Source of the DNA: Oceanospirillales bacterium
Lineage (GTDB): Bacteria > Pseudomonadota > Gammaproteobacteria > Pseudomonadales > Balneatricaceae
Assembly: GCA_029027825.1 (NCBI GenBank)
Contig: CP093399.1
Location: 177,828 to 241,827 of the forward strand
DNA length: 64,000 nt
Reading direction: 5' to 3'
Below, in pieces: positions 3,466 to 40,750 of the stretch. The stretch's first letter is position 1. Each line of letters opens with the position of its first letter. The notes beneath the pieces were generated by a model, which was given only the letters and a program-made list of their open reading frames with translations, did no database searches and was not told the DNA's origin. Made by a program: the position numbers and the translations under genes.

Positions 3466-3762
3466 GTACACATCCCCGTGTACAGACAGTAGTTAGGTTA
3501 AAATTTGCTATTTTACAAAATACAGGCTGTGGCTGGTTCCGGGCTCGTGTTCTAAATACCTAATGTAATGTTTGACCTTATTACTAGGTGAACCATACCG
3601 TTGCGGGGGCAGCGAAGGCAACATCGAAAAATCGATAGTCTCACTTCCCATTTAACCTTTTAGTACCTTTCAGCATACTGAAATCGATTAAAAACTAAAC
3701 TGAATTTGAGATTGTTTAGTAAAGGATATTGCTGACTAACTCCTTTGGCACCACAGCCTATA
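3466..3762 (-). promoter_or_regulatory. Cobalamin riboswitch with P13 expression-platform hairpin
   Basis: Minus strand: P1 taggctgtgg/ccacagcct, AGGTTAAATGGGAA, GCTGCCCCCGCAACGGTA, GAGCCCGGAACC; downstream hairpin GTACAC-GGGGAT-GTGTAC next to the GGAG RBS, loop complementary to L5 CCCC; precedes a cobalt transporter. Confidence 0.9.
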
Positions 3763-22733: not shown

Positions 22734-22772
22734 TTTTCATCTATAAGCTAAGCTACCCCCCCCTCTATAAAA

Positions 22773-22810
22773 TTAAGCCTCAGCTGCTCAGCTGGGGCTT
22801 TTTAGTTTTA
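22773..22810 (+). terminator. Rho-independent terminator (copy 1 of a 38-bp direct repeat)
   Basis: aagcctcagc-tgctca-gctggggctt followed by a T-run; 35/38 identical to 36181-36218. Confidence 0.75.
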
Positions 22811-22811
22811 A

Positions 22812-23019
22812 CCTGAATAAGTGACTTCACTGCACCACATAGCGCAAGCTCTTGATTCACGGCGGTTAGAAAAATGCCCGCTGAACCTACGGGTTTTATG
22901 CATGGATGCATTTATTTAGCGAATGCAGGACGCATATGAGCTTGCAGCTAAGATTTTTCAATTCCATCGTAAAACTAATATCTTACACTCTGTATTCACT
23001 TTGAAGTCACGGATTCAGG
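22812..23019 (-). mobile_element. MITE-like repeat family A, 208-bp copy (inverted)
   Basis: Reverse complement aligns end to end with 39497-39704; TIRs present. Confidence 0.85.
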
Positions 23020-23334
23020 TTTAACTAACGGCTCATTGCTCGTTTAGCATGATGCTTCAAAATCAGGCTTTCTAAAATCGCTGAATTACTAACAAGTTGA
23101 TTTTTAATTATATATATTAGTTCCTGATTGACCATCATACTCCGCTTGACTTGATAACTGTCTAACAAAGTGATTAATTCCAACAAGTTAAGCGAAGTTA
23201 TAATATGTTTTTATCATTTAATAATGGTTTAGATTATAGCCAGGTCATTTATTTGTAATTTTTTTTTACTTTAGGTTAGTCTGTGAAGACACAGCACTAA
23301 TCAGGTAGTGTTTTGTTTTTCCTCTGTGCAGCGC

Positions 23335-23396
23335 CTCTGTGTCCTCTGTGGTGAAAAAATCTTTAAAGGATTAGTTTTACGACAGAGGACACAGAG
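23335..23396. repeat. Long hairpin of CACAGAG/CTCTGTG type
   Basis: ctctgtgtcctctgtggtgaaaa pairs with ttttacgacagaggacacagag; inner aatctttaaaggatt. Confidence 0.6.
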
Positions 23397-23804
23397 AAGA
23401 GATTAAAAGCATCTTTTGCTGCGCTGTGGCGGAAACACATGGCTAATCAGGTATTAGTTTATCACCTGCAGGATAACTTGCATTCGTAGAATGAGCTGAT
23501 CCGATTTTGCTCTCCTTATTAATTCAGTACGTTGTCTTCTGCTGATTAAAATTATTTAGAAAAATAACTGTATTGAATAGCATTCTCTATATGCCAAATT
23601 TTTAATAGAGCGTCCAGAAGTGTTTTTAATAAAATAATTTGAAATTATCAAAAAAAACCTTACAAATTTACCTTGCGTTCATTTTGGCAAATCAATAAAC
23701 TCCTTTCCTTAGTTGTTGTTCATTTTACGTTCAGCTTTATTTCGCTTCAAATCATAGAAAGCGTATTAACCTAAACGAATGAGATCTTGCCTAGGAGGCT
23801 GTAA

Positions 23805-25520
23805 GTGTTGTCTTATATTAAATTATATGTACTTAACCTAGCGTTATTTATAGTAAAACTGCACGTTCTATTAATCGCACTAGTTTCTACCTATAGCTAC
23901 GCAAGCTCTCATATTAACCCTCAAGTTATCAATCGAGCTGTTAACGAAATAGATCGGCAAATCAGGCTGCAACGAGAAATCGAAAAATCACTGTTGCCCG
24001 AGAGCCAGCCTAAACAGACCATTCAAACTAACCCCCTGCAGCAGAGTAAAGTTTTAGAGGGTGGTCCATGTTTTAAAATCCGTAAAACAATATTAATCGA
24101 TAGCACTGGCCTTTTACCTATTCCCCTTGACTACACAAAGCTCAATGGTCAATGTGCAGATAGGAAAGCCCTTGTTCAACTATTAGAAAGCATCAATATT
24201 TACTATCAGCAGCAGGGGTTAATAACCACTCGGGTTTACCTTAAGCAGCAGAATTTAAAAAGTGGTGAATTGCTCCTTGTTGCTAAAGCGGGAATATTAA
24301 CAGGCTTTAATTATATATTTGGCAAACCAGTAGATAGACGAGTCACCAGCGCTTATCCTTTTTCTGAAGGAGATTTGATCACCCTAAGAGAGTTAGAACA
24401 GGGATTAGATAACTTAAATAGACTGCAATCACAATCCGCTAAAACTGAATTACAACCAGGTGAACAGCTAGGCCAATCGCAATTAGCCATTGATATAACC
24501 AATGCCAAACCTTGGAGAATTGATTTAGGGTTAAATAACTACGGCGTTAAAACAACCGGAACACGTAAAGCATCCATTGGTTTTGGCTATGATAACCTAT
24601 TGAACCTTAATGATGATTTATATGTAAGCTACAACCAAAATACCAACTCTAGTGCTGCGAACAAACGCAGTAAGAGCTTATCTTTTAGCTACAATATTCC
24701 CTATAAAAATTGGCTGTTTAACTTTTCAACCAGCCAGTACAACTATCGACGGGTACTCTCTGGTATCAATCAAAATTACGACATCGATGGCTTTAGCAAC
24801 AATCGCCGCGTCGGTGCCGATTATCTGTTGTTTCGAAATCAGCAATCACGCGTGTATGCCACTTCCAGCCTAACCCTTAAAAAAAGCCGCAACTTCATTG
24901 AAGATACTGAAATTGAATCACAGTACCGTCGCATAACTTTATTGGAGTTGGGCTTAAAGGGAGATCATCAATTCCAAAATCAAAACTTTATCGACTGGTC
25001 AGTTAGGGTGGTTAAAAACCTAAAAATCCTCACTAGTATGCATGTCATACCGGGGCTTGCTGATGATGATTTTAAATACTTAAGGGGGGGTATAAAACTT
25101 GATGTTCCCCTGGCAAAAAATCGCTACAAATATTCTACCGAGCTAGTATTTCAATATTCAGACGATGAGTTAACTGGCTCTGAGCAATTTAGCGCAGGCG
25201 GCTTAGGCAGTGTCAGAGGCTTCCACACTGAGTCGATCTACGGCAATACCGGTATGTATTGGAGAAACACCTTCTCCACCGCCAATAAAAGTTTTGGTAA
25301 ATGGCAGCTAAAGCCTGAAATATCGTTTGATCTAGGCGCCGTAAAAAGCCCCGCTACTATCACTTGGAGCGACCCTTTGGTGGCAGGTGTCGGTTTAGGA
25401 CTAAGTGCAACATACAAAAAACTTTCAATTAAATTAAATGTGGCTAGGGCAATAAAGCGCCCTAATCAATTAAGAGGCTCAAAAAACCAAGCCTTCTTTT
25501 CACTAAATTACGCATTTTAA
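23805..25520 (+). CDS. cdiB: TpsB/CdiB (ShlB/FhaC/HecB family) secretion pore
   Basis: POTRA motifs GLITTRVYL and LRELEQGLDNLNRL, EQFSAGGLGSVRGF (VRGF motif), C-terminal Phe; directly upstream of TpsA. Confidence 0.9.
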   Translation: MLSYIKLYVLNLALFIVKLHVLLIALVSTYSYASSHINPQVINRAVNEIDRQIRLQREIEKSLLPESQPKQTIQTNPLQQSKVLEGGPCFKIRKTILIDSTGLLPIPLDYTKLNGQCADRKALVQLLESINIYYQQQGLITTRVYLKQQNLKSGELLLVAKAGILTGFNYIFGKPVDRRVTSAYPFSEGDLITLRELEQGLDNLNRLQSQSAKTELQPGEQLGQSQLAIDITNAKPWRIDLGLNNYGVKTTGTRKASIGFGYDNLLNLNDDLYVSYNQNTNSSAANKRSKSLSFSYNIPYKNWLFNFSTSQYNYRRVLSGINQNYDIDGFSNNRRVGADYLLFRNQQSRVYATSSLTLKKSRNFIEDTEIESQYRRITLLELGLKGDHQFQNQNFIDWSVRVVKNLKILTSMHVIPGLADDDFKYLRGGIKLDVPLAKNRYKYSTELVFQYSDDELTGSEQFSAGGLGSVRGFHTESIYGNTGMYWRNTFSTANKSFGKWQLKPEISFDLGAVKSPATITWSDPLVAGVGLGLSATYKKLSIKLNVARAIKRPNQLRGSKNQAFFSLNYAF

Positions 25521-25535
25521 TACAGAGCCATCATC

Positions 25536-28500
25536 ATGAATAATACTATCACCCCCACTAACAACGTGCTTAAACTTCACTGTACTCGAGTGTTAGTCGC
25601 GCTATTAACCTTTCAATTAGCTTTTCAACCGATGACGGCCCTTGCTGAAAATTTTAAACTTGAAGGTGGTGGGAATCACGCACCCAGTACAAGTCGCCCA
25701 TTTGTAGATGGCGCTAATAATGGTGTACCCGTTGTAAATATCAACACGCCTAATAGCCAAGGGCTATCCCACAACACTTACCAGCATTTCAATGTATCCC
25801 CTAGTGGGGTGGTGCTCAATAATAATGCCACCAATGTAAATAGCCAACAGGCGGGTTGGATTGGAGGAAACCCTAATTTGCGGACGGGCAACGAAGCTCG
25901 AATAATTCTCAATGAAGTCATAGGTGCCAGCCGATCACAACTGAATGGCTACATAGAAGTAGCCGGTAAAAAAGCCAATGTGATAGTAGCAAACCCCAAT
26001 GGGGTTACTTGTAATGGCTGTGGTTTTGTCAATACAGATCGAGTAATCCTCACCACCGGTGCTGCACAATTTAACAATGATGGATCATTAAACGCATTTA
26101 GGACCACCACTGGCGACATTCAAATCTTAGGTAATGGTTTAGATGGATCAGGTCAACAGCGAGTAGATATTTTAGGTCAGGCCGTAAAAGTATATGGCAA
26201 AATAAAAGTACAAGGTAAGCTAAATGTTGTCACAGGTAACAACAGCATTGATTACTTAAATGGCCAAGTCACTAAAAATTCAGAGACTGCGGAAGATGGA
26301 AGCATCGGTTTAGATGTATCCAATTTAGGGGGTATGTACGCCAATCAAATCAACTTACAAGTTATTGATAAAGGTGCGGGCGTCAACATGCAAGCGGGGG
26401 AGCTGATTGCCATTGATCAGATATTTTTATCCGCTGATGGTGAGGTTGCTATTGCAGGAGGAAGAATAGAGAGCAGCCAAGCAGACATCATCATCAATGC
26501 TAACAAACTCAGCATAAATGCTGACGAAAATGATACCACTAGCCAGTGGTTAGCCAAACAAGATATCGTTATTAGCACCCAAGCTGATACTAGCCTTAAT
26601 AAAGTCAGTTTTGCTAGCGAAAAGAACATTTCAATTAGCCAAACCAAGTCTGAGTTAGCAGCAAATAGCCATGTATTGCACATAAAGAACAGTCAGTTAG
26701 AAGCCAAGGGAAATCTAAATATAACCGCTGATAAATTAATAATAAGCAACCAATCGGCACTGATAGCAGAGATAAAACTACAGCTGCAAGGCATTGACAT
26801 TGAACTGACTGACAGTGCATTAGTGGTACACACCGATTCTGTAAACAGCAACTATGGTGATCTGCTGATAAGCGCAGAAAAATCTTTTTCAATGACTGGC
26901 GGCTCAATCACTGCAGCCAACAACTTAGATCTACAAGCCAGTTATATTGAAATTAAAAACGCACGGGTAGCGGCACTACACAACTTAACCTTGAATGGAG
27001 TTGGCAGTTTAGCGGCAGACATCGTCAAGGCCGGGCAAATCACTATCGAAGACAGCTACGTGATAGCCGCAGCCGGTGATTTAAAACTTTTTGCCAATAC
27101 CGTAGAGATTAAAGGCACATATGAGTTAGATATCAACAACCTGGAAATTAGAGACGCTAATGGCAATGCGAAGAGCAAAAGCCAACTCTGGGCAGGTAAT
27201 AACATTGAAATCCAAAGTTCAACATTCACCAATACTAACGGCTTACTGTGGGCCGCAAATGATCTACAAATAGATTTAGATGGCCAAGGCACGCGTGCAG
27301 AACGGATTAGCAACCAACAAGGGACCTTAGTGGTAGCCAATGGTGACGTCACTCTAGCAGCAGATTTGGTTGAAAACACCGGTCAAAAGCCCACTTTTAT
27401 TGTCGATGGCATCAATGAAACCTGGACTGACTTAGCAGGCGTTTCAGCAACAGATGTTATTGGCGACACTTATAAATTAATTGATGCGCAATACCTTACC
27501 AACGGCAAGGTAGATAGTACTAACAATGCCGCCTATTTAGATTTATTAATAAGCTTAATGGAAGGAACCCCACTGACAACGGCTGCTAAGAACTTGCTAA
27601 AAGATAGTGTGATCGACGGCGATAAAGTGAAGTCAGAGCTGCGAAACAGCTGGAATTTATTAAAAACCAAAGCCACCGCTCAAAGTATTGCCGATTTAGA
27701 TACTTATTTAAAAGGCTTGCTTGCAACCACCATTGAAAAAGAGATAGCGGGTGTTACCCAAGAGATTACCGTCAGCTTGGCCAGTGGCCTTAATCCTTTA
27801 ATATTAGATGATTACTTAGCACTGTGGGAAGCCGTTATTAACGGAGGCACAATCCCTACCAACAGTTTATCGTTGATTAAAGCTGAAAATAAAACAGATG
27901 AGCAACTGATTAGCAGTGTAAATACTAAGTTCGTTAACATGCGCGCCAGTACCAATGTGCCTTATGAAATCAAGTACTTTTTAAAGGCTGATAAATTAAA
28001 TTTAGACGGCTTTCTCGGTCGAATAATTGCCGGCAATGATATAAATATTGATAGCGATCGCTTTAAAAATATCCACGCAAACCTAGCCGCTGGTAATGAC
28101 ATCACTATTACTGCAGATTCAGAGATGGTCAATCAATCTTTCGCCGCATCAAAAGTAATCGTAGAAGTACACAAAAAAGCCTGTTTTACCTGTCATGAGG
28201 GAAAACAGGGTTATGGGGATAGCTTTGGTGGCAAGCTACAAGCTAAAAATAACTTCTTGTTAAACGTAGCCATAGGTAATTTAAGTAGTACGGTTGAAGA
28301 GAGCAGTAACGGCGACAGTAAAATTGCAGATTTGGTGGTGGCAGTCAATCAAGATACAAGTGCTACCCGTGACCAGTTAGATGAAACCCACGATAATCGC
28401 AGCGACGAAGCTGCTGTCATTACCGCAAAACAGGATTCAGTGGATAGCCTAGGCACTCGTCAAACTGAAGTAAGTGCGGACACAAGAGTAGACAATGCAA

Positions 28501-31500
28501 CAGTCATTAACGGTGAAAATACCAGTGTCAAAATAGTGACCACTGATGGTGTAGTGATAAACATACCAAGGTCACTGATCGGGGTTATCGAAGACAAAAT
28601 TGATACCAGTGAAGTCCCTTTATCTGAAGCACAACTCTACCCCCGTGAGTTGAATTTAAATTATACGGATTATCTAACCTTCTTATCTTCCGCTTTTACA
28701 GCAGGACGATTAGGTAACCATCGTGAATTACGTGACGCAGCGTTTGGTGATGGTTTTCCAAGCCCTGGACAGCTAGCAGACGGCTTCGACAATACTTTAG
28801 GTGATGGTTGGTCTAACCGCAATACCGCTATCGCCAATGAGAATGCATTGACCCGAGAAGAATGGTTACAGCGTACTCAAAGAGCCATGAGAAAAATACA
28901 GCAGCAAATAAAAATCGAGACCTTTATTAGTGGTGCACTCGTTTCAATAATGGATAAAGGTGCTATTAATACACAAAATAGCCTTCACCAAGGTGGCGCA
29001 CTAATTGCCGCACAACAGATTAATTTAAATGTAAAAGGTGATATTAACTTACAAGGTGAAGTTAATGCTGAGCAGCAATTAACCATAGCTACTCAAGGGG
29101 ATCTAAATAGCGAGGCGCAGTTAACCGCTACAAATCAACTGACGATAGACGCTGAAAATATTAAGCAAACAGGCGGTGCTATTAAGGCTAAAAATGTAAT
29201 TTTAAAATCCCAACAAGACACTGACATAATTGCCAGTAATATTGCAGCAGAACAAAATCTTAGTATCGAAGCTGGTAATGACATAAGCATCGGCTCGCAA
29301 TTAAACAAGAGCACCGGCATTAGAGCTGGAAAGCGCTGGAACAGTGAAAAACGAATCGCCTCAGAAATAAACGCCGGTGGTGATATTTCTTTGACCTCCG
29401 GGCAAGATGTCAACATCAAAGGCAGCAGTGTTACCGCACAACAGGCGATAGATGTCACAGCTGGTCGCGATATAAATATTCTATCAGAAACTGAAAAGCG
29501 CGATTATTCCTACACTCAGACAACGGAAAAAATTCTAACTGAGCAAAGCCCTACAGTAAAATCTAGAGACACAGCCGTTGTATCAACCATCACCAAAACG
29601 ACAGTTAACGCTACTGAGCTTGCACAAGCGAAATCCATCCTGAACAGCGGTGCAGATATAACCTTAAATGCAGGTCGCGACTTAAACATCAGCGCTTCTG
29701 ATTTAGTAACTGATAGTAATATTGTTGCACATGCGGATGGCGAGATAAATATAAGCTCGGCCATTACAGAACGCAATGAAGCGAAAGCCGTATCGAAAGC
29801 GACAGTGGTTAAACCTGCCTACAGAGCAAACACGGGTAAATACCGCGACAGAGACGTTGTCTTCAGTGAAGAGAATCAACTCAACGAGCATAAAAAAATC
29901 CAAGTCGCCAGCCACTTAGATGCCCTTGGCAACATACAGCTTAGCTCAGGAACTGATACGACCATTAATGCCAGTCAACTGAATGCCGGTGGCTATATTG
30001 CGATCAAAGCTGCGGATGACATCAATATCACCGCTGAAAATAATCAAATCAATACCTATACAAAGATAGGCAATACCACACAAGCGAACCAAGATACTGT
30101 CGCCGCAGTGTCTGAACTTAAGTCTATCGGCAATTTAATTCTCGAATCAGGCGCTGATGTAAACTTAGAAGGCACTGTACTAGCGGCAATAGAGAAATTA
30201 GAAGTGACCGCCGCAGGGAATATCAACGTAGCAGCGGTGAAACAGCAGCATAATCAACAGCAGCGAACTACAGGCAGTTATACAGAGAATAGACGTCGTA
30301 GAGACGATGACTATACGGTGACCATAGAAACTAGCAATAGCAAGAACTCTCAGTTGACAGACTATAAAGGTGCTAGCTTAAAAGGCGATGGTGTCAGTAT
30401 TTCATCAGGTAAGAGTATTACCGCCACAGCGGCTAATATTGTCAGTGACGATAAGCTAACGCTTAGCGCTGGCGATGATGTTAATTTGGAGGCCGCACAA
30501 GGTACAAGTCAGACACAAACCGATAATACCGGCGGGTCAAAAGGTTTCTTGGGTGGCAGAGGAGCGGCTAAAGTCCAAACAAATACAACCTTCCAACAAG
30601 GCACAACGCTTGAATCAACAGGGGATACTGAAATAACAGCCCTGCAAGATATAAACGTAGCGAGTTCGACTATTCGTGCAAAGCAAGATATCAATATTGC
30701 TGCTGCCAATAATATAATAATCACATCAGAGCGCGAATCCTCAAGTACAAAGAAGGCTTACAGAAATACTTACAATAATAATATGACCCAATCGGGCAGT
30801 GAAATATCTGCCGATGGTAGTACATTGTTATACGCGCAGCAAAACATTGGTGTCGAGGGCTCGCTTATCGATGCCAAAGAAACAACTAAGCTGCAAGCAG
30901 ATGAAAACATTGTAATAAGTTCTGCCGAGGAGTTTAGAACATCAGGCTACTCTTATAAAAAGAAAAGTGGCTTCATGGGGCATCGCAAAAAATCGATCAA
31001 ACACAGCGAACAATACTTAACACACAAAGCCGCGACGCTAAGCGGGGATGAAGGGGTTGAAATAAGCTCTGGTGCTAACACTCAAATAGTTGCGTCAGAT
31101 GTCATCTCTTCCAAGAGTGATATAAACATCGCAACAGGTGGTGAGTTACTACAGTTAGCTCAACTAGATAAAACCCGTATACAACACTCCAAGAAAAAGT
31201 CTTCTGCGTGGGGCTTAGTCAAAAAAAATCATACTTTAGATAAAGTTAATCACTCGGCAAATGGCAGTATTTCTGAAGCGATGGGTAATGTTGCTCTGCG
31301 CTCTGGTGGTAGCACACGATTACAGGCAAGCGAGTTCAAAGCAGCGTCGGTCAACATAACAGCGGGTATTGATACTCAAGGGCAAGTCATCAACCCTAAC
31401 GCTAAAATATACCTAGATTCCATCACCGAGTTTTCTTCACTGCGTGAATCAATTTTTGACTCATCTGGCCTTAAATACATCAGCATAGATAAAGGTTTTG

Positions 31501-34500
31501 AAAAAACCCAAGAAGCACAGACTAAAATCAGTGCCGATACTATTGCTTTAAAAGCAGCAGCGGGTATTGATGCCTCTGTGGGGGTTGCACCTGAGGGAAG
31601 CTTAGAGCAAGCCATGGATAAGCTGGTGGCAGAGCCGGGCATGGAATGGCTCAAAGAGCTTAAGCAACGAGACGATGTTAATTGGCAGGCAGTCGAAACT
31701 GAATTTAATGATTGGCACTACGAGCAGTCGGGTTTAAGCGCGCTAGCTTCACTGATTATTGCAATTGCCGTGGGTGTGGCGATGGGGCCGATGGGAGCTG
31801 GCTATGTCGGAGGATCTGGTGGGGTTGGTGCTGCAGCAGCTGCAGGAGGAGGCTCAATTGGCACCGCAGTGGGAAGTGGTGCGTTGGGGATAGCTTTAGA
31901 GGCAGGTACAGTTTCTTTAGCGACAACAGCAAGCATTAGCTTAATTAATAATAAGGGTGATATAGGCGCTGTATTCAAAGAGCTAGGTAGTAGCGCCAAT
32001 GTTAAAAGCTTAATTACCAGCATGGTTACAGCTGGTGTTGTTAATAAGGCTGGTCTTTCAAAGCTGACAAATGTGGATGCCAGCTTTACAGATCATCTAA
32101 AAGGTGCCATCTATACTAGCGCGATTGAAACAAGTGCTAAAGTAGCGATTAATGGTGGCAGTTTCAAAGACAGTTTCAAAGACAGTTTAAAAGGCAGTTT
32201 CTTGAGTAACTTAGTAGATGTAGCAGGTAAAAATGTTACTAAGCTAATAGGTGATCAAGAGCATACGGATACTGGAGGTCTTGGCTGGAAGCAAGCTGGA
32301 GTTGAGAAAACATTAGCCCATGCTTTAGTAGGCTGTGTAACAAGTGCAGCCAAAGGCGGAGATTGTAAAGCAGGTGCGATAGGTGCCGCAGTCGCCGAAC
32401 AGTTATCACCATATTTGGAAGATAACAGTGAAAATAAAGAATGGGAGATTGAGCTAACTAATCAGCTGAGTTTAGCATTAATCAGCGCAGGGGCGGCCGC
32501 AATAGCTGGTGGTAGCGATGAAGAACTTGTTGATGCGGCGAACAGTGCGAAACAGACCGACAACTATAACCGTAAATTGCACTTAGATGAAATCCAAGCG
32601 ATTAAAGAAAAAGCTAAGCAATTAAGTGTATTACACCCTGAAAAAACAGAAGTTGAATGGATTGAAGCGCTAGGCATGGAAGCACTGCGCAGAACAGATA
32701 AGCTTCACCGCATACAAAACAAGGTTACTCTAGATCCTCTGGTCGTTAAATCATTGGATGAGCTTGCATTCAAACATGGCACAGCGTTCAGTAAGAAGGT
32801 AGCAGGCCAGTTTAACTTCCTAGGTCAAGATGCTTACTATGAAAACTCAGCGACTTTTGCTGGTAATATTTTAACTAATCGTGAATTTTATGATGATGTC
32901 TTTGCCAGTGCGGTACCTGAAAACAATTTAGGATTTACCGGCAGCGATGTCGCATTAATTCACTCTATGGCCAATGTTGGAATAAAAACTTATGGCTTTA
33001 ATGACAATACCTTTGATGCAGATGACTTCCAGATCCTAGACCCTAGCGACGAGAAATCTGATTTAGATAATATGCTGACGTTAAAAATGTTAGGCAATGA
33101 ATTAAATCAAACTTTAAAAAAGTCGCGTGTAATCGATCGATTGGCAAAAAAAGAATATTTTACTTTAAAAAATCAGCGTGAATCCGATCCGAATACAGTG
33201 ACTCAACAGCAAGTTGAGAGTGCTTATGATAAATGGGGTGTAACGGGTAATATCGTTCGAATCGCATCTAAAGGGCAAAAAGTTGTCACTTTTGAAATAG
33301 GCGCGTTGCTTAATAAGGGAATTCGCGGTGGAGCGGCAAATGCTGTCGGTAAGATCGCAGAAGATACTCTTAGATTATTAGCAGGCGTGCCATTCGCAGT
33401 GACGCTACTTGCGAGTGCGGCTGCAGGTGATGAAAGCTCACGGGCTGAAGTTAACCAAGCATTAGCCGCTGTTGCTGATGTCCTACAAAACTTAGATAAA
33501 CTGCCACAGCAGACCGCAGATGCAATAATGGCAGATTTAGAGCGTGCAGAAGCAGCTTACAATAACGGTGAACTCGAAAAAGCTGGTGAAATAGTCGGTC
33601 AGTTACAAGCCGAAATGATTTCAGCCGCAGGTGCAGTAGGCGGAGCAGCAAAAGGTTTAAGCTCTGGCTTGCAATACTTTGCGAAGAAAGTGAACAAACC
33701 TAATGCAGATAAATACGGCTCTGAGTTAGCGACAAATTGCTCTTTCGCAGGTAATACACAAGTATTAACCTCTAACGGGTATATCCAAATAAGCCAGTTA
33801 CGTGAAGGTGAGAGCGTTTGGTCAAGAAACAGTAATAATGGTCAAATGGGCTGGAAAACAGTCTTAGCGCAATATTCTAATCCTTATAAATACACGGTGA
33901 ATGTGAGTATTGCAGATAGGCAATCAGGTGAGATACAAACGATTACTTCTAATCGCATCCATCCGTTTTTCGTACAAACTGTAGAAAAAGTAGCTAAGAA
34001 CTCTGAAGAACATGATTATCAAGGACCAATAGCAAATGGGCAGTGGGTAGATGCCTCTGAATTAAAAGCAGGCTATAAGCTTTTAAATGATGATCAGAGC
34101 TGGTCAGAAGTCGTATCTATTAGTGTTGAAACTAAGTCATTTACAGCATACAATTTAACAGTTGATGATTACCATACCTATTTTGTAAAGGGAGAATCTT
34201 CTAGGGAAGTGAGGCCAGTTTGGGTTCATAATGATTGTTGGGATAGTAAACCAGATAGTGCAGAGGGTCTTACTGATACAAAAGATCCAATATCAACAAA
34301 CTTATCTCAACCTGGCGGGCTTAATGCAACAGAAGGAGATAGGGTCGTCAAACCAAATGGGAAGCTCACTAAACCGACACATCCTCTCGCTAAACATGGC
34401 CCTGATGTAACTGATGAGTACTTAATCACGCGTGTTGAAACTGAGTTATTAAAAGGTAAACGGCCAAGAGAAGGGTTTCGTACGAAATTTAATGATAGAG

Positions 34501-34769
34501 CCCAAATGGAGGAAGCTATCAATAATGTCGTAGAAACGCGCAAAGTTGATATTGATGATTGGTTAACTTCAAACCCTAATCCCGGTTCTTTAATGAGCTT
34601 CAGTGCAAGTTCGAAAATTGATAACTTAGGGAAAGGATTTCAAAGTGTAAAGCAAGCTGATGGCAGCTTTAAAATCGAACCGATTACGAGACCATTAAAT
34701 GAAGTTAATTTAGTTCTCAAGTCTGATGGCGCAGGCGGTTATCTAATACACACAGCTCATCCACAGTAG
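25536..34769 (+). CDS. cdiA: CdiA-like TpsA: signal peptide, TPS domain, FHA repeats, DUF637-like region, pre-toxin Hint, RNase A-like C-terminal toxin
   Basis: NPNL and VANPNGVTCNGCGF, hemagglutinin repeats, MEWLKELKQRDDVNWQAVE...GLSALASLIIAIAV, Hint CSF...YFV...WVHN, tip HPLAKH..TDE.L.R...F.DR..V.LVLK...YLIHTAHP. Confidence 0.88.
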   Translation: MNNTITPTNNVLKLHCTRVLVALLTFQLAFQPMTALAENFKLEGGGNHAPSTSRPFVDGANNGVPVVNINTPNSQGLSHNTYQHFNVSPSGVVLNNNATNVNSQQAGWIGGNPNLRTGNEARIILNEVIGASRSQLNGYIEVAGKKANVIVANPNGVTCNGCGFVNTDRVILTTGAAQFNNDGSLNAFRTTTGDIQILGNGLDGSGQQRVDILGQAVKVYGKIKVQGKLNVVTGNNSIDYLNGQVTKNSETAEDGSIGLDVSNLGGMYANQINLQVIDKGAGVNMQAGELIAIDQIFLSADGEVAIAGGRIESSQADIIINANKLSINADENDTTSQWLAKQDIVISTQADTSLNKVSFASEKNISISQTKSELAANSHVLHIKNSQLEAKGNLNITADKLIISNQSALIAEIKLQLQGIDIELTDSALVVHTDSVNSNYGDLLISAEKSFSMTGGSITAANNLDLQASYIEIKNARVAALHNLTLNGVGSLAADIVKAGQITIEDSYVIAAAGDLKLFANTVEIKGTYELDINNLEIRDANGNAKSKSQLWAGNNIEIQSSTFTNTNGLLWAANDLQIDLDGQGTRAERISNQQGTLVVANGDVTLAADLVENTGQKPTFIVDGINETWTDLAGVSATDVIGDTYKLIDAQYLTNGKVDSTNNAAYLDLLISLMEGTPLTTAAKNLLKDSVIDGDKVKSELRNSWNLLKTKATAQSIADLDTYLKGLLATTIEKEIAGVTQEITVSLASGLNPLILDDYLALWEAVINGGTIPTNSLSLIKAENKTDEQLISSVNTKFVNMRASTNVPYEIKYFLKADKLNLDGFLGRIIAGNDINIDSDRFKNIHANLAAGNDITITADSEMVNQSFAASKVIVEVHKKACFTCHEGKQGYGDSFGGKLQAKNNFLLNVAIGNLSSTVEESSNGDSKIADLVVAVNQDTSATRDQLDETHDNRSDEAAVITAKQDSVDSLGTRQTEVSADTRVDNATVINGENTSVKIVTTDGVVINIPRSLIGVIEDKIDTSEVPLSEAQLYPRELNLNYTDYLTFLSSAFTAGRLGNHRELRDAAFGDGFPSPGQLADGFDNTLGDGWSNRNTAIANENALTREEWLQRTQRAMRKIQQQIKIETFISGALVSIMDKGAINTQNSLHQGGALIAAQQINLNVKGDINLQGEVNAEQQLTIATQGDLNSEAQLTATNQLTIDAENIKQTGGAIKAKNVILKSQQDTDIIASNIAAEQNLSIEAGNDISIGSQLNKSTGIRAGKRWNSEKRIASEINAGGDISLTSGQDVNIKGSSVTAQQAIDVTAGRDINILSETEKRDYSYTQTTEKILTEQSPTVKSRDTAVVSTITKTTVNATELAQAKSILNSGADITLNAGRDLNISASDLVTDSNIVAHADGEINISSAITERNEAKAVSKATVVKPAYRANTGKYRDRDVVFSEENQLNEHKKIQVASHLDALGNIQLSSGTDTTINASQLNAGGYIAIKAADDINITAENNQINTYTKIGNTTQANQDTVAAVSELKSIGNLILESGADVNLEGTVLAAIEKLEVTAAGNINVAAVKQQHNQQQRTTGSYTENRRRRDDDYTVTIETSNSKNSQLTDYKGASLKGDGVSISSGKSITATAANIVSDDKLTLSAGDDVNLEAAQGTSQTQTDNTGGSKGFLGGRGAAKVQTNTTFQQGTTLESTGDTEITALQDINVASSTIRAKQDINIAAANNIIITSERESSSTKKAYRNTYNNNMTQSGSEISADGSTLLYAQQNIGVEGSLIDAKETTKLQADENIVISSAEEFRTSGYSYKKKSGFMGHRKKSIKHSEQYLTHKAATLSGDEGVEISSGANTQIVASDVISSKSDINIATGGELLQLAQLDKTRIQHSKKKSSAWGLVKKNHTLDKVNHSANGSISEAMGNVALRSGGSTRLQASEFKAASVNITAGIDTQGQVINPNAKIYLDSITEFSSLRESIFDSSGLKYISIDKGFEKTQEAQTKISADTIALKAAAGIDASVGVAPEGSLEQAMDKLVAEPGMEWLKELKQRDDVNWQAVETEFNDWHYEQSGLSALASLIIAIAVGVAMGPMGAGYVGGSGGVGAAAAAGGGSIGTAVGSGALGIALEAGTVSLATTASISLINNKGDIGAVFKELGSSANVKSLITSMVTAGVVNKAGLSKLTNVDASFTDHLKGAIYTSAIETSAKVAINGGSFKDSFKDSLKGSFLSNLVDVAGKNVTKLIGDQEHTDTGGLGWKQAGVEKTLAHALVGCVTSAAKGGDCKAGAIGAAVAEQLSPYLEDNSENKEWEIELTNQLSLALISAGAAAIAGGSDEELVDAANSAKQTDNYNRKLHLDEIQAIKEKAKQLSVLHPEKTEVEWIEALGMEALRRTDKLHRIQNKVTLDPLVVKSLDELAFKHGTAFSKKVAGQFNFLGQDAYYENSATFAGNILTNREFYDDVFASAVPENNLGFTGSDVALIHSMANVGIKTYGFNDNTFDADDFQILDPSDEKSDLDNMLTLKMLGNELNQTLKKSRVIDRLAKKEYFTLKNQRESDPNTVTQQQVESAYDKWGVTGNIVRIASKGQKVVTFEIGALLNKGIRGGAANAVGKIAEDTLRLLAGVPFAVTLLASAAAGDESSRAEVNQALAAVADVLQNLDKLPQQTADAIMADLERAEAAYNNGELEKAGEIVGQLQAEMISAAGAVGGAAKGLSSGLQYFAKKVNKPNADKYGSELATNCSFAGNTQVLTSNGYIQISQLREGESVWSRNSNNGQMGWKTVLAQYSNPYKYTVNVSIADRQSGEIQTITSNRIHPFFVQTVEKVAKNSEEHDYQGPIANGQWVDASELKAGYKLLNDDQSWSEVVSISVETKSFTAYNLTVDDYHTYFVKGESSREVRPVWVHNDCWDSKPDSAEGLTDTKDPISTNLSQPGGLNATEGDRVVKPNGKLTKPTHPLAKHGPDVTDEYLITRVETELLKGKRPREGFRTKFNDRAQMEEAINNVVETRKVDIDDWLTSNPNPGSLMSFSASSKIDNLGKGFQSVKQADGSFKIEPITRPLNEVNLVLKSDGAGGYLIHTAHPQ
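33738..34232 (+). other. Pre-toxin Hint (bacterial intein-like) domain within CdiA, Cys2735 to C-terminal His-Asn (165 aa)
   Basis: CSFAGNTQV, NRIHPFF, AYNLTVDDYHTYFV, VWVHN; next residue is Asp. Confidence 0.88.
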
Positions 34770-34778
34770 GTCGATATC

Positions 34779-35069
34779 ATGAATTGGGAAAAAGGTCTAG
34801 GAAACATATTTGGTGCATACATCAATCAGCAAACATTAGAAGATGGTGTTGAAGAAATGACAGATGTTAGTGCAGACGATATTAGTTGTCACAATGACTT
34901 CTTGTCATGTATTGAGAATGGTATTAACTCATGTAAACAAAATGAACAGACTTCTATATCCTTAATTAATAAAAGTGGTTATCAAGTTAGAAATCTCGAG
35001 TCCGCATTAGAAATTCTTCAAGATTTAATGGAAGCATATAAAGAAAGTTACTCTAATAAATGTAATTAA
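34779..35069 (+). CDS. cdiI: CdiI immunity protein for the RNase A-like toxin
   Basis: 96-aa acidic ORF 9 bp after the cdiA stop; LGNIFGAYINQ resembles the L.xFgaYFHQD start of immunity proteins paired with RNase A-like tips. Confidence 0.75.
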   Translation: MNWEKGLGNIFGAYINQQTLEDGVEEMTDVSADDISCHNDFLSCIENGINSCKQNEQTSISLINKSGYQVRNLESALEILQDLMEAYKESYSNKCN

Positions 35070-35106
35070 AAATTTGATGGGAGTAGCTTTACCTTCTGCG
35101 CCGTAG

Positions 35107-35670
35107 ACTATTAGTGCAGAGGGTAATGCAGCTTCAACAAATAAGCCAAACTCTGGTACTCAGCCGGGGGCAACTGACGCTGAAGCTGGCACTGCGGGTA
35201 GTGGAATTAAATCAGGTTTCGGTGTGCCAGAAAACATGCCACCTCGACACGAGTTATTTGATGTAGAAGGAATTTCTGTAAATCGTCAGTCTCATGTGCT
35301 TGATGGACAAGTAAATCAAAGCGGAACAAGAGCTACAGGTGGTCATTGGCTGGGATCAACGAATGTACGACCAGTTTCTGGCTCAGCTCAAGAAATTGGT
35401 AACGGTGTGATTTCGGCTGAAATCAAAATCCTTGATTCTAATACTGGCGCTTATATCCTCAAGTCTAACAACGGAGGCCGATCTACTTTATTCCCTGCAA
35501 ATTGGAATTCTAATAGAGTTATGGATGAGGTGTCTGTTGCAAATAACAATGCAGTTCGGGTTGGCAATAGTAATTATTACGATGGTGTTTCTCCGTCAGG
35601 CGTCATAGTTAGGTTCGTAAAACCTAACGGTAAAGACTCAGTTACTTTTTATCCAAGAGATCCGCAATGA
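35107..35670 (+). pseudogene. Orphan toxin C-terminal module, bacterial EndoU-like RNase
   Basis: Frame open from 35107 with no ATG before the linker (possible GTG 35224/ATG 35236); SHVLDG...GGH, STLFPANW, YDGVSPSGV, TFYP. Confidence 0.78.
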
Positions 35671-36137
35671 ATAAGAAAGAAGTAAATTTGAAAAGTACTT
35701 CGGTAAATATTAAGTGGTCTGATGATAACCCAAAATTACGCCACTATATTGTTGATGGTAGTGATCGTGCTCAAAGTGTGATTTCTTGGGTTTATAATAC
35801 GAGTTGTTCTACTCCTCAACTGATTATTAATGATTGTAAGTCTGTATTAGACAAAATAAACCTTTTGAAAGAAACAGGATTGAACTCAAGCCATGGTTCT
35901 CTCTATTCATATAATCAGTTGTTCAATTTAGATAACCTAGCAGAGATAAGGGATGAGTGGGACTTCAATGATTGTGTATTCTTACCTATAGAAGAGCTTA
36001 TAAAAGTCATTGAGCACTTTCATCGGCTGTTTGTTGATCAGAGGTCTGGTGTTATAAATTTTTCTCTTTATGACTTAGAGCCATCTTATCGATCTGATGC
36101 TGAGCACTTTGATGAAAACGGAAATGTTGTTTTTTGA
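35667..36137 (+). CDS. Putative immunity protein for the orphan EndoU toxin
   Basis: ATGA overlap with the toxin stop; 156-aa acidic protein; position typical of CT/immunity pairs. Confidence 0.65.
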   Translation: MNKKEVNLKSTSVNIKWSDDNPKLRHYIVDGSDRAQSVISWVYNTSCSTPQLIINDCKSVLDKINLLKETGLNSSHGSLYSYNQLFNLDNLAEIRDEWDFNDCVFLPIEELIKVIEHFHRLFVDQRSGVINFSLYDLEPSYRSDAEHFDENGNVVF

Positions 36138-36180
36138 GATAATTGAGGTCAGACAAAAATTAATATCCAACCTACTAGGT

Positions 36181-36218
36181 TTAAACCTCAGCTACCCAGC
36201 TGGGGCTTTTTAGTTTTA
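36181..36218 (+). terminator. Rho-independent terminator (copy 2 of the 38-bp direct repeat)
   Basis: aaacctcagc-taccca-gctggggctt plus T-run. Confidence 0.7.
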
Positions 36219-36292
36219 GCTAGCCTGCTGTTGAATAATGGCATCTAGAAAGGCAATGGGGTCGCGTCTTGCCTTCAGGACAGACACCTACT

Positions 36293-36508
36293 TTGCCAGC
36301 AATCTTCCAGCAGAACAAAATCTTAGTATCGAAGCTGGTAATGACATAAGCATCGGCTCGCAATTAAACAAGAGCACCGGCATTAGAGCTGGAAAGCGCT
36401 GGAACAGTGAAAAACGAATCGCCTCAGAAATAAACGCCGGTGGTGGAATTTCTTTGACCTCCGGACAAGATGTCAACATCAAAGGCAGCAGTGTTACCGC
36501 ACAACAGG
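36293..36508 (+). repeat. 216-bp duplicate of cdiA stalk segment 29230-29445, carried in ORF 36238-36546
   Basis: Direct comparison: 3 mismatches in the 201-bp core plus 3 in the first 15 bp; same codon phase as cdiA. Confidence 0.92.
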
Positions 36509-36726
36509 GGGTGGCGTCTACAGAATTAGACCAGAGCTGGACATAGCTGCTAAAAATAGAGATTGTTTACAATTGTTTATAAATTATTTCAGTAATCATT
36601 TAAAGAAACCGGTAAAAAGTTGTAGTATATCAATGACTGAAACGTCTTGACGTTCCACTGTCCGTAAATTTTTTACATAGAATTTAATTGAATATGTTTT
36701 TATTTGTAACTGTCTAAGGTAATTGA

Positions 36727-39474
36727 TTGAATACTGAGAAGAAAGAAAGAGGTGCTAGGTATAAAATACGAAAGTTTGTACCATCATTTTTGCTGCAAAT
36801 ATGGGTGATATTAGTTGTTTGTGTGGTATTGGTTTCTGAGTTTCTTTGGTTGCCAAGCAACTTAGAATCTACCCTTAATCAGCACATCAATCGTTTTCAA
36901 TTTGTTTTGCAGGTTTCTAGTCGATTATTTGCTGCACAATCCTCTGATTTAGAACGCGATCTGTTACTTACTCTGCTTAATAAAAATGCTGAGTCACAAC
37001 ACTGGCTGGAAATAGTATATGCTGAAGAGGCTAGCCTAAGGCTGCAAGCGGCGGCTAATACAGAGCTGCAACTGTTACTTCAACCTTTATCTGATTCCTC
37101 TTTAGCCTATGGATTATGGTTCAACCCCACTGAAATTTTACGTGAGAAAGAAGCTTTATATCGCTGTTTTGAGTTAATTCTAATTGCTTTTGTTACCTTT
37201 ATTATAGCTATCATTTGGGTTAGGCGCTGTTCCTTTATAGCCTCGCTAAAGAAATTGATTGAATCTGCTAAATCATTAGCAGACGGCGATTTTAATACGC
37301 CATTTCCCAAGGTTAATCGTCATTCTGGATTAATTGGATTATATAACGCTTTTGAGGTTAGTCGTAAAGCTCTGTCAAAAAGCCGCTCGGAATTGCTCGA
37401 TCAAGTAGACACTAACAAGCTCAGTGAACAACGACTACACGATTCACAGGAAGTTGCTAAATTAGGTAGCTGGGAGTGGATAGTCCAAGAGGACACTATT
37501 TGGTTTTCAACCAGCTTAGAAAAGATACTGTCTATAAAGAAAAGCTCAGAACATCTTGGAATTAATGAGTTTTTTCAACAAGTACATCCCGCAGATAGAA
37601 AGGCATTGCTGCAAGGTCTCGGAGCAAAATTGCAAGTGGGCACGATCGTCTCTACTGATTTTCGAGTTTCAGTAGAAGGTGATATTAAGCATGTGCATTT
37701 GATGGCCAATGTGAAGCAACAAGCAGATGGGAAATTACGTCTGATTGGAACTTGCCAGGACATTAGTGAGCGCAAAGATATTGAATCACTACTGAAAAAA
37801 TTATCTAGTGCTATTACTGCCAGTAGTTCAGGGGTGATGATTACCGATTTGATCGGTATTGTTGAGTATTTAAACCCTAAGTTTACTGAAACTACCGGTT
37901 ATGAACTGGAGGACTTAGCGGGGAGTGCTTCAGTGATTCTATCTCGGGATTGCCTACCTGAAGGTCATTATGATGAAATTTGGGGGGATATACTCTCTGG
38001 AAAAAGCTGGCGTGGAGATTTACAAAATATCCGTAAAGATGGCAGTTTGTTTTGGTCCGTCGTCTCCATTTCTCCAATTAACAATGAATATAACGAATTA
38101 ACCCACTTTGTTATTGTCTGTGAAGATGTATCTGAGCTCAAAGATGCCCATGCAAAAATGGAACAACTAGCATTATTTGATGAATTAACCGGTCTGCCAA
38201 ACCGGAGATTACTGTTTAGAAAACTGACGGAATTATTTCGTCATGATGTTATGAAATCCCCTGCGGTAGTGATGTTATTAGATTTAGATAATTTTAAGGC
38301 AATAAATGACACCCAAGGTCATCCTGCGGGAGATAAATTATTAATTGAAGTGGCTAACCGTCTTAAATTGAGTCTGCCGGACGAAGGGTTCGCAGCACGT
38401 TTAGGAGGAGATGAATTTGCGATACTTATCAGTCCTGTCAAAAATGTAGAACAAATTGAAAACCTCGCTAAACAAGTACTTGATGATATTGCACGACCCT
38501 TTATTATCAATGGAAACGAGATAAAAATTAGCACTAGTATCGGGCTTGCCTGGCTGCCAAAAGATGGCAATATGCCCGATACTATTTTAAAACATGCAGA
38601 TTTAGCAATGTATCAAGCTAAGGAAATGGGGCGAAATCAATATCGTCAATTCACTGAGCAACTGCATGACCAGCTCCAGCGCTACATACGTTTCTCAAGG
38701 GAGTTACCTGAGGCACTAGCGAATGGCGATTTTTATTTATGCTTCCAGCCTAAAGTAGATCTAACCGCGAAAAAAATTATTGGGGTCGAGACTCTCATTC
38801 GCTGGAAACATCCTGAACTGGGAAATATTCCTCCTTTTGATTTTATCTCGATAGCGGAAGACAGCGGATTTATCGTCCCGCTGGGAAATTGGGTATTTGC
38901 TGAAGCCTGCCGACAAATGAAAAAATTGCGAGAAATGGGCTATGCCGATTTAACTTGCGCGATTAATATTTCACTGCGACAGTTTAGTGATCCTTCGCTA
39001 TTGGGGGTTATCGAAAAATCTGTTCGTGATAATGGTTTGAATCCGCAGAACCTCGAAGTTGAAATCACAGAATCATTGTTAATGGAAGATGTCGATAAAG
39101 CCATAATGACCTTGAAAAAAATTCAGAAGTTAGGGATTAGTGTCGCTATTGATGACTTCGGTACTGGATACTCTTCCTTTAGTTATTTGAAAAATTTACC
39201 GATCAATGTTTTAAAAGTAGATAGATGTTTTATTAAAGACATTCCGGAAAGCCAAGAAGACATGAAAATCACCTCGGCGATTATATCAATGGCACATAGC
39301 TTGAATCTAAAAGTGGTGGCTGAAGGTATAGAAACAGAGAGCCAGAGTGAAATATTGTTAGAGCAAAAGTGTGATATTGGACAAGGTTATTTATTTGGCA
39401 AGCCAATGAGGCTAGCTGAATTGAAGCAACAACTTGATCAAGAGGAATTTTTAAGGCAACTAGACCAAGGGTGA
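36727..39474 (+). CDS. Membrane HAMP-PAS-PAS-GGDEF-EAL diguanylate cyclase/phosphodiesterase
   Basis: DELTGLPNRR, DLDNFKAINDTQGH.AGD, RLGGDEF, FQPKV...VETLIRW, IDDFGTGYSS, VAEGIE. Confidence 0.92.
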   Translation: MNTEKKERGARYKIRKFVPSFLLQIWVILVVCVVLVSEFLWLPSNLESTLNQHINRFQFVLQVSSRLFAAQSSDLERDLLLTLLNKNAESQHWLEIVYAEEASLRLQAAANTELQLLLQPLSDSSLAYGLWFNPTEILREKEALYRCFELILIAFVTFIIAIIWVRRCSFIASLKKLIESAKSLADGDFNTPFPKVNRHSGLIGLYNAFEVSRKALSKSRSELLDQVDTNKLSEQRLHDSQEVAKLGSWEWIVQEDTIWFSTSLEKILSIKKSSEHLGINEFFQQVHPADRKALLQGLGAKLQVGTIVSTDFRVSVEGDIKHVHLMANVKQQADGKLRLIGTCQDISERKDIESLLKKLSSAITASSSGVMITDLIGIVEYLNPKFTETTGYELEDLAGSASVILSRDCLPEGHYDEIWGDILSGKSWRGDLQNIRKDGSLFWSVVSISPINNEYNELTHFVIVCEDVSELKDAHAKMEQLALFDELTGLPNRRLLFRKLTELFRHDVMKSPAVVMLLDLDNFKAINDTQGHPAGDKLLIEVANRLKLSLPDEGFAARLGGDEFAILISPVKNVEQIENLAKQVLDDIARPFIINGNEIKISTSIGLAWLPKDGNMPDTILKHADLAMYQAKEMGRNQYRQFTEQLHDQLQRYIRFSRELPEALANGDFYLCFQPKVDLTAKKIIGVETLIRWKHPELGNIPPFDFISIAEDSGFIVPLGNWVFAEACRQMKKLREMGYADLTCAINISLRQFSDPSLLGVIEKSVRDNGLNPQNLEVEITESLLMEDVDKAIMTLKKIQKLGISVAIDDFGTGYSSFSYLKNLPINVLKVDRCFIKDIPESQEDMKITSAIISMAHSLNLKVVAEGIETESQSEILLEQKCDIGQGYLFGKPMRLAELKQQLDQEEFLRQLDQG

Positions 39475-39496
39475 ACTGATTCTTTACTAAAACATA

Positions 39497-39704
39497 CCTG
39501 AATCCGTGACTTCAAAGTGAATACAGAGTGTAAGATATTGGTTCTACAGTGGAACTGAAAAATCTTAGCTGCAAGCTCATATGCTCCTGCATTCGCTAAA
39601 TAAATGCATCCATGCATAAAACCCATAGGTTCAGCGGGTATTTTTCTAACCGCTGTAAAATCAAGAGCTTGCGCTATGTGGTGCAGTGAAGTCACTGATT
39701 TAGG
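39497..39704 (+). mobile_element. MITE-like repeat family A, 208-bp copy
   Basis: TIR cctgaatccgtgacttca/tgaagtcactgatttagg with TA-rich flanks. Confidence 0.85.
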
Positions 39705-39778
39705 ATATAGTTAGCCCTTAACAGTGTCGATTAGCGCAGATTCCTCTAATCTCTATCTGTGGTTGATAAGGAGAAAAC

Positions 39779-40750
39779 TTGAATAACGTGAAAAAAACAG
39801 ACAGCACTCAGCTGGCGGTGCTCGAGCAGTTAGTGGCTGCCATTGGTCAGGTTCTATTAGGTAAGCAAACACAAATAAAGCTCGCACTCACTTGTATTCT
39901 GGCCAGCGGCCATCTGCTAATTGAAGACCTACCAGGTATGGGAAAAACCACACTAGCACACGCTATAGCTGACGTACTAGGACTGCGTTATAACCGAGTA
40001 CAATTTACCAGTGATTTACTGCCGACTGATTTGCTCGGGGTGTCTATTTTTAATCGCACCGAGCAAAATTTTGAATTTCATCAAGGTCCTATTTTCACTC
40101 AATTACTGCTTGCCGATGAAATTAATCGCACTACTCCTAAGACTCAAAGCGCTCTATTAGAAGCGATGGAAGAGGGGCAGGTGAGCATTGAGGGAACCAC
40201 CTATGAGCTCCCCAACCCTTTCTTTGTGATCGCCACGCAAAACCCTTCACACAATAGTGGCACATATCCACTGCCTGAATCTCAGCTAGATAGATTTATG
40301 ATGCGTATCGAGCTGGGGTATCCATCTAGAGAAGCTGAGCTGTGTATGTTGCGCAGCGTATCGAATCATGTTGGAGTTAGAAATAGAAGTAACAGTAGCC
40401 GCGCTAAAGTATCGGCATTAATTAGCCTGGATCAGCTTGAGAGTTTGCAAAACAACGCCGCTAGCGTAGTGGTGAGTGATCACTTACTTGATTATCTACA
40501 GAGGCTTATTCAATTCAGTCGTGAAGACAGTACCTTTAAATTTGGTATATCACCTCGGGGTTCAATGGCTTTACTGTGTGCTGCGAAAGCTTGGGCCTTC
40601 TTAGATAATCGCAATTATTTATTACCGGAAGATGTCCAGCAAGTGTTTGTCGCAGTGATCGGGCATCGGCTGGTTGGCGCGGCGAGCGATCAAGCTACTG
40701 GTACTTTAGCTGAATATATATTGGCCCAAGTAGATGTGTTGTATGAGTAA
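39779..40750 (+). CDS. moxR: MoxR family AAA ATPase
   Basis: HLLIEDLPGMGKT, RVQFTSDLLPTD, LLADEINR, ATQNP, PLPESQLDRF. Confidence 0.93.
   Translation: MNNVKKTDSTQLAVLEQLVAAIGQVLLGKQTQIKLALTCILASGHLLIEDLPGMGKTTLAHAIADVLGLRYNRVQFTSDLLPTDLLGVSIFNRTEQNFEFHQGPIFTQLLLADEINRTTPKTQSALLEAMEEGQVSIEGTTYELPNPFFVIATQNPSHNSGTYPLPESQLDRFMMRIELGYPSREAELCMLRSVSNHVGVRNRSNSSRAKVSALISLDQLESLQNNAASVVVSDHLLDYLQRLIQFSREDSTFKFGISPRGSMALLCAAKAWAFLDNRNYLLPEDVQQVFVAVIGHRLVGAASDQATGTLAEYILAQVDVLYE

Follow-up and report, generated by a model that had tools for sequence, protein, structure and literature searches.

A cdiA stalk fragment at the 3' edge of an inserted CDI island is probably a non-functional scar of past rearrangement

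A cdiBAI locus could be identified on the forward (+) strand of the window, the whole stretch of 64,000 nt that was analyzed; coordinates are those of the window unless another sequence is named, and C1 denotes the genome. The first gene, cdiB1 (23805..25520, +), encodes a TpsB transporter of 571 aa with Pfam matches to ShlB (1e-76), POTRA_2 and POTRA_3. It is followed by cdiA1 (25536..34769, +), which encodes a TpsA protein of 3077 aa with a TPS domain (residues 54-304), a CXXCH motif (883-887) and FHA-2 repeats from about residue 1170. In the C-terminal part of this protein Pfam places DUF637 (2120-2284), PT-HINT (2747-2900) and an RNase A-like tip (RNAse_A_bac, 2949-3076). Directly after cdiA1 lies a gene of 96 aa (34779..35069, +) without a Pfam match, the presumed immunity gene cdiI1, to which this function is assigned from its position. 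With a TpsB, a TpsA that carries TPS domain, FHA-2 repeats, pretoxin domain and toxin tip, and a small downstream gene, the locus has the make-up of a cdiBAI locus. A 49%-identical CdiA from another species of the same genus (G001, L020:3834-13739) has also kept the CXXCH motif in its middle region (KGCFTCHTGK); the motif is therefore not a chance feature of one protein.

Downstream of cdiI1, an orphan cdiA-CT with an EndoU nuclease tip (about 35114..35670, +; Pfam EndoU_bacteria, 1.7e-16) starts at the shared TAGTGCAGAGGGT junction (repeat D3). A presumed orphan immunity gene of 156 aa follows (35667..36137, +), which is likewise assigned by position and has no Pfam match. The operon ends with a conserved element of 81 nt, T2 (36139..36219, +), in which a terminator scan and folding predict an intrinsic-terminator hairpin (36186-36205) followed by CTTTTTAGTTTT. 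Beyond T2 lie a spacer of 73 nt (36220..36292, +), a fragment of the cdiA stalk (36293..36508, +), a short junction filler (36509..36531, +) and the native region (36532..36726, +) upstream of a PAS-GGDEF-EAL gene (36727-39474), the first gene after the fragment.

All three TPS/CDI loci of the genome end with a conserved element of 45-81 nt, consisting of a hairpin (CCTCAGCT-loop-AGCTGGGG) and a T-run. Copies are located at 36139-36219 and 22765-22810 of the window, at C1:2572437-2572517 and C1:688016-688055, and at L020:174-2738. T2 shares homology with the 3' ends of both other loci, 2 and 3, and with the element that occurs five times after cdiI in G001, where it bounds small or empty, decayed cassettes. 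Only four copies are present in the genome, and in three cases the copy comes after the last immunity gene of one of the TPS/CDI loci. The fourth, T1 (22765..22810, +), is a partial element of about 45 nt with hairpin and T-run that is 92% identical to 36181-36218 and to the locus-2 copy; it lies 31 nt past the stop of the HDOD gene and abuts a MITE. Judged by where its copies lie, the element looks like the 3' boundary of toxin/immunity cassettes.

A repeat scan of the region 24000-40000 reported a single long direct repeat. Its upstream copy (29230..29445, +) is located inside cdiA1, where it encodes residues 1232-1303 in the early FHA-2 region, and its downstream copy (36293..36508, +) is the stalk fragment, which is truncated at both the 5' and the 3' side. 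The copies are 216 nt long, 97% identical and spaced by 7063 nt from start to start. When the fragment was compared with the whole 4.79-Mb genome by BLAST, the match to cdiA1 had an E value of about 1e-101, so that the repeat is not due to chance. Six mismatches were found (cdiA positions 29237, 29241, 29244, 29383, 29384 and 29402), the first three at most 15 nt from the left edge of the repeat, while the pair 29383-29384 changes GAT to GGA; the perfect blocks measure 138, 43 and 17 nt. Each copy starts at codon position 2 of its own frame, which bears out an earlier note on this DNA in its description of a near-identical direct copy in the same codon phase 7063 bp away. The spacing itself is 3n+1, which has no bearing on the frame of a fusion.

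Pairwise alignment with the flanks showed that both edges of the repeat are sharp. To the left of 36293, tblastn extended the match to residue 1217 with only about 1 identity per 15 to 18 residues, and no convincing homology could be found further left at the DNA or the protein level. Past 36508, the filler begins with ~16 nt of weak, decayed and frame-shifted cdiA-like sequence with an indel of 1 nt, followed by ~7-13 nt of other bases. The fragment begins 88 nt past the terminator hairpin of the operon. No match to the 73-nt spacer was found in either CDI locus at word size 7, and the similarity of the spacer and the T1 region to the corresponding spacer in the related genome G005 was not significant in alignments with shuffling.

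An open reading frame of 102 codons (36238..36546, +) crosses the spacer, the fragment, the filler and native DNA. Beyond the repeat it runs through 12 codons of filler and native intergenic DNA that are stop-free by chance, and its TAG stop (36544-36546) lies within native intergenic DNA; the frame is therefore open by accident of read-through. Its sole Pfam match is the FHA-2 repeat (Fil_haemagg_2) carried by the fragment, and a search for the exact protein of 102 aa found no other record. An exact look-up of the GGDEF/EAL protein also found no record. No Shine-Dalgarno sequence precedes the ATG, no promoter signal above chance was found at the fragment, and no Rfam family matched in 36100-36800. 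As it has no Shine-Dalgarno sequence and lies behind a terminator, the reading frame is judged not to be a gene.

Two genomes of the same genus, G005 (closed) and G010, show the site in its island-free state. Their homology to the window starts only at about 36532, with an identity of about 85% that includes the native region upstream of the GGDEF/EAL gene. In both, a 411-aa HDOD gene and a 915-aa GGDEF/EAL gene lie ~600 nt apart with a MITE between them, and the CDI genes are absent. As these two genes are adjacent in G005 and G010, it is concluded that ~13.5 kb of the window, roughly 23020 to 36531, is an insertion. This island contains cdiB, cdiA, cdiI, the orphan EndoU tip with its immunity gene, and the terminator. 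Of the island-derived DNA, the stalk fragment comes last before the native sequence; it ends about 23 nt short of the right edge, and no toxin- or immunity-like sequence could be found 3' of it. At the junction, cdiA reads ACAGCTGG where native DNA has GAGCTGG, which fits an illegitimate, microhomology-type event and is not proof of one.

The MITE-like element, of about 85 or about 210 nt, is present at 22811-23019, 23466-23592 and 39496-39704 and at hundreds of other genomic sites. When 22734-23804 was used as a query against the genome itself, 668 matches were obtained, mostly to this element. One of the copies has a counterpart in G005 and G010, at the same intergenic spacer and in the same orientation. 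A copy of 160 nt interrupts the region upstream of cdiB2, but not that of cdiB1.

Locus 2, to which cdiB2 belongs, lies on the opposite strand at about 2572437-2587100 of the genome and has 6807 nt in common with locus 1 at 99.35% identity. This block (window 23588-30394; C1:2580464-2587270, - strand) extends from 217 nt upstream of cdiB to about codon 1620 of cdiA, after which no nucleotide similarity remains, and its 44 differences are clustered near the 3' end. Such near-identity signals a recent gene conversion or duplication. Loci 1 and 2 are inverted repeats 2.37 Mb apart and a substrate for a large inversion. In cdiB2 (C1:2585341-2587050, -) a change of CAA to TAA at codon 562, equivalent to window position 25488, cuts off the C-terminal 10 residues (QAFFSLNYAF) and with them the terminal Phe of the barrel, and the remaining protein is 99% identical to cdiB1. 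The cdiB2 transporter may therefore be impaired, and cdiB1 may then be the sole intact transporter for both CdiA proteins. Downstream of locus 2 (L006:1753-3223; C1:2570752-2572222, -), a BrnT/BrnA-like pair, a C-terminal fragment of a tyrosine recombinase and a RelE/ParE-like pair could be recognized by reading the translations, which suggests that locus 2 lies within an old integrative island.

Locus 3 (C1:678706-688055; L015:2707-12056) encodes a TpsB of 609 aa and a TpsA of 1297 aa with ESPR, TPS, GLUG and YDG domains. After a gap of ~290 nt, a frame of 838 codons follows that contains an FHA-2 end and a Scabin-like ADP-ribosyltransferase tip, and the locus ends with a gene of 141 aa and the terminator element. 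From this layout, locus 3 looks like a split or internally deleted cdiA.

A third copy of the repeat, with 95% identity, is located within the second cdiA at genome positions 2581413-2581628. The fragment differs from cdiA1 at 6 positions and from cdiA2 at 10. The two genes differ from each other at 6 sites of this segment, and at 5 of these the fragment has the cdiA1 base. It is closest to cdiA1, and thus either derived from the neighboring gene or homogenized with it. Five substitutions are private to the fragment; three of them change an amino acid (I to L, A to P, D to G), and these cluster at its edge. Such a proportion of non-synonymous changes is as expected for neutral decay. The identity of 97% and the perfect block of 138 nt fit a recent origin and also maintenance by gene conversion.

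Related genomes were searched for the same arrangement. The earlier note had named the presence of the copy in related strains as a check on its proposal; no such copy was found in the genomes of the genus, in the CDI locus of G001 or in the nearest metagenomic relative, L021. DNA of the fragment is absent from the other genomes of the genus. The CDI locus of G001, whose CdiA is 49% identical, contains no stalk duplicate, and in L021 cdiI is followed by an orphan tip, without a stalk stub. When residues 1150-1400 of CdiA were searched against 5.8 billion proteins, the nearest CdiA outside the genome was 52% identical; no outgroup is therefore near enough to polarize the substitutions or to serve as an alternative source of the fragment. 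No relatives of CdiA residues 1101-1500 were found among genome contigs. A Pfam survey (PF13332) of 81 genomes of the family found FHA-2 proteins in 5, in a search that also missed the present stub. The right-hand junction, which is common to the parental and the deletion alleles, had zero exact matches in metagenome contigs. Since no searched relative has a comparable stub, the stub is considered idiosyncratic and not a conserved design.

The product of a crossover between the two copies was predicted in silico. Joining cdiA up to 29445 with the sequence from 36509 onward gave an open frame of exactly 1315 aa, which ends in GVASTELDQSWT before the stop (in its longer form ...VTAQQGVASTELDQSWT). 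The fusion retains the N-terminal repeats, the TPS domain (54-304), the middle region with the single CXXCH (883-887) and about 130 residues of FHA-2, and it loses most of FHA-2, DUF637, PT-HINT and the RNase A-like tip. The 1315-aa TpsA with TPS domain, middle region and CXXCH that the earlier note had predicted was thus reproduced. By topology, deletion between the direct repeats removes 7063 bp including four genes, as cdiI, the orphan EndoU tip and the orphan immunity gene are lost as well, and it is irreversible within the cell. For RecA recombination, the minimal efficient processing segment is a few tens of bp. The perfect block of 138 nt is therefore ample for a rare RecA-type deletion or unequal exchange, and it is physically possible for the repeat pair to act as a competent substrate for either.

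Taken together, the downstream copy is most probably a scar without function, left by a past rearrangement where the horizontally inserted CDI island ends on its 3' side. The earlier note had offered, as one of two readings, the relic of a recent rearrangement. The relic is supported by a bare piece of stalk that lies behind the terminator and ~23 nt from the edge of the island; recency is compatible with the data, which would fit homogenization by gene conversion as well. The locus is recombinogenic, as illustrated by the abrupt divergence of loci 1 and 2, the seemingly split cdiA of locus 3 and the cassette array of G001. Fragmented cdiA pieces downstream of cdiBAI have been described as displaced 3' ends, a 'fossil record' of displacement (PMC4927057, PMC9086364).

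The scar could have arisen by either of two routes. In route (a), an incoming or recombining cdiBA segment would have displaced the rest of an earlier resident cdiA, of which a later deletion would have trimmed all but the stub. In route (b), a partial tandem duplication would have spanned the DNA between cdiA nt 3695 and a point 73 nt beyond the terminator, with its join-point at 36292|36293, and a deletion reaching into native DNA would then have removed nearly all of the second copy. After either route, the fragment would have drifted neutrally. Each would require two illegitimate events, and both would fit the data equally. The place of T1 to the left of the island is explained by neither route, nor by the Campbell-type insertion considered below.

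In a Campbell-type insertion, a circle with the stalk segment, the toxin half, the immunity genes and the terminator would have entered a cdiA truncated at about codon 1308, and one homologous crossover in the 216-nt segment would have made the flanking direct repeats. Direct repeats around a segment of 6.8 kb are the topological signature of single-crossover integration, and the place of the right repeat, directly against native DNA, is that expected of a truncated ancestral gene. The junction of the circle must, however, join the 73-nt spacer to the middle of the cdiA stalk, and the segment contains no integrase or mobility gene. Moreover, the block in common with locus 2 runs unbroken through the repeat to 30394, so that the insert would have to match locus 2 too. 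Because this block crosses the repeat without a break, insertion, although topologically equivalent, is less parsimonious, and the event is regarded as unlikely.

The other reading of the earlier note was a route to a toxin-free adhesin. As a deletion switch, the stalk copy would be kept since RecA-dependent deletion yields a subpopulation with the toxin-free 1315-aa TpsA as an adhesin or biofilm factor. The geometry of this proposal holds, with direct repeats in phase, a perfect block of 138 nt and an open frame of 1315 aa that includes the middle region as well as the TPS domain. FHA-2 and all that lies beyond make up the delivery half in the current model of CdiA (PMC9086364), and N-terminal parts of CdiA have been reported to act in adhesion and biofilm formation independently of toxin delivery (PMC4927057, PMC9086364); a cell with the deletion could perhaps retain adhesion. 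As a function the route found no support. The event is irreversible and so does not amount to a switch, and the frame is open only because 12 filler and native codons happen to be free of stops. Comparable stubs occur in no relative searched, the deletion allele was not found in metagenome contigs, and three of the five private substitutions are non-synonymous, as for neutral decay.

The loss of immunity weighs further against such a use. CDI systems are self-stabilizing, as recombinants that delete cdiI become susceptible to parental cells and cells that lose immunity are eliminated by their siblings (PMC4927057). By analogy with these published results on CDI surveillance, a cell with the deletion would lack protection from the RNase A-like toxin of kin cells. 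As the deletion removes both immunity genes, its product should be eliminated by CDI+ siblings; probably, RecA-dependent deletion between the copies occurs at low frequency and is purged. An irreversible deletion at the cost of immunity makes the repeat a liability or a neutral fossil and not a mechanism, and retention of the copy for this purpose is decidedly unlikely.

The fragment might instead be kept as a functional patch of homology, either because it serves as donor or acceptor in gene conversion with cdiA1 and cdiA2 or because it gives rise to an RNA able to pair with cdiA mRNA. The repeat segment holds 6 of the 44 differences between cdiA1 and cdiA2 in 3% of the block, where about 1.4 are expected (Poisson P about 0.003), and the fragment has the cdiA1 base at 5 of them. 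However, no fragment pairs with a second and larger cluster of differences (29904-30041), and the enrichment is no longer significant once the raised divergence near the 3' end of the block is taken as the background. With no promoter signal above chance, no Rfam family and no conservation of the fragment elsewhere, this role appears very unlikely. Repeats within long repetitive genes are a well-known cause of assembly errors, but on sequence grounds it is very unlikely that read mis-joining created the second copy: the fragment has five positions private against both cdiA genes, its flanks are unique on either side, and two related genomes are collinear with the right one, in a genome that is a closed single contig of 4.79 Mb with 98.9% completeness.

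The scar can be compared with known systems. Orphan or displaced cdiA-CT/cdiI modules and cdiA pieces after cdiBAI are attributed to Poole et al. (2011) in PMC4927057 and PMC9086364, and the 'fossil record' model published there accounts for the fragment. Like these modules, the fragment lies on the + strand downstream of cdiB, cdiA, cdiI and, here, a classical orphan EndoU/immunity pair; it has homology to cdiA from codon 1232 and lacks its own translation start and a TPS secretion domain. Classical orphans start near the pretoxin/toxin junction and carry a toxin tip and an immunity gene, whereas the fragment is early FHA-2 stalk cut on both sides. It contains no C-terminal toxin domain from the pretoxin junction, and no immunity gene is present 3' of it, the next gene being the native GGDEF/EAL gene. 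Neisseria species have silent truncated copies of exoproteins downstream of the expressed gene, namely 5'-truncated tpsA (tpsC) and mafB cassettes. The fragment resembles these as a silent, truncated downstream copy of a two-partner-secretion gene, but the cassettes encode alternative C-terminal toxin ends and immunity genes, whereas the fragment encodes no more than 72 residues of stalk. A further likeness is to deletion by RecA between dispersed direct repeats in bacteria, with a 216-nt repeat, its perfect block of 138 nt and a distance of 7 kb.

A duplication-recombination model exists for the orphan rhs-CT/rhsI of Salmonella Typhimurium (Koskiniemi et al., 2014, as described in PMC4927057). 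There, too, the main gene has direct repeats in common with a fragment downstream of it, which permits RecA-dependent deletion or duplication, and a partial tandem duplication is among the candidate origins of the present fragment. In Salmonella, however, the recombinant deploys a new toxin and keeps immunity by duplication, whereas here nothing is deployed and immunity is lost. It is quite unlikely that the stub, as the join-point left by a partial tandem duplication of the toxin half, belongs to a pair of copies that still drives duplication and deletion of the 7-kb toxin/immunity segment. If it did, it would represent the duplication step of the duplication-recombination model, proposed but rarely caught, by which orphan toxins are deployed with immunity kept, and it would imply heterogeneity of the population in immunity gene dosage and occasional toxin-free TpsA variants.

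The fragment is a further example of known locus debris, an ordinary by-product of the evolution of such loci. It adds one documented bare stalk fragment to the 'fossil record' of CDI remodelling, in which such fossils are usually toxin tips. It also calls for caution, as an open, in-frame fragment beside a toxin gene can seem designed when its frame is read-through into flanking DNA. The locus would also allow a direct measurement of the loss or duplication of a 7-kb toxin/immunity segment through its repeats, and deletion variants, if they did persist, would put to the test the published view that CDI systems enforce their own maintenance.
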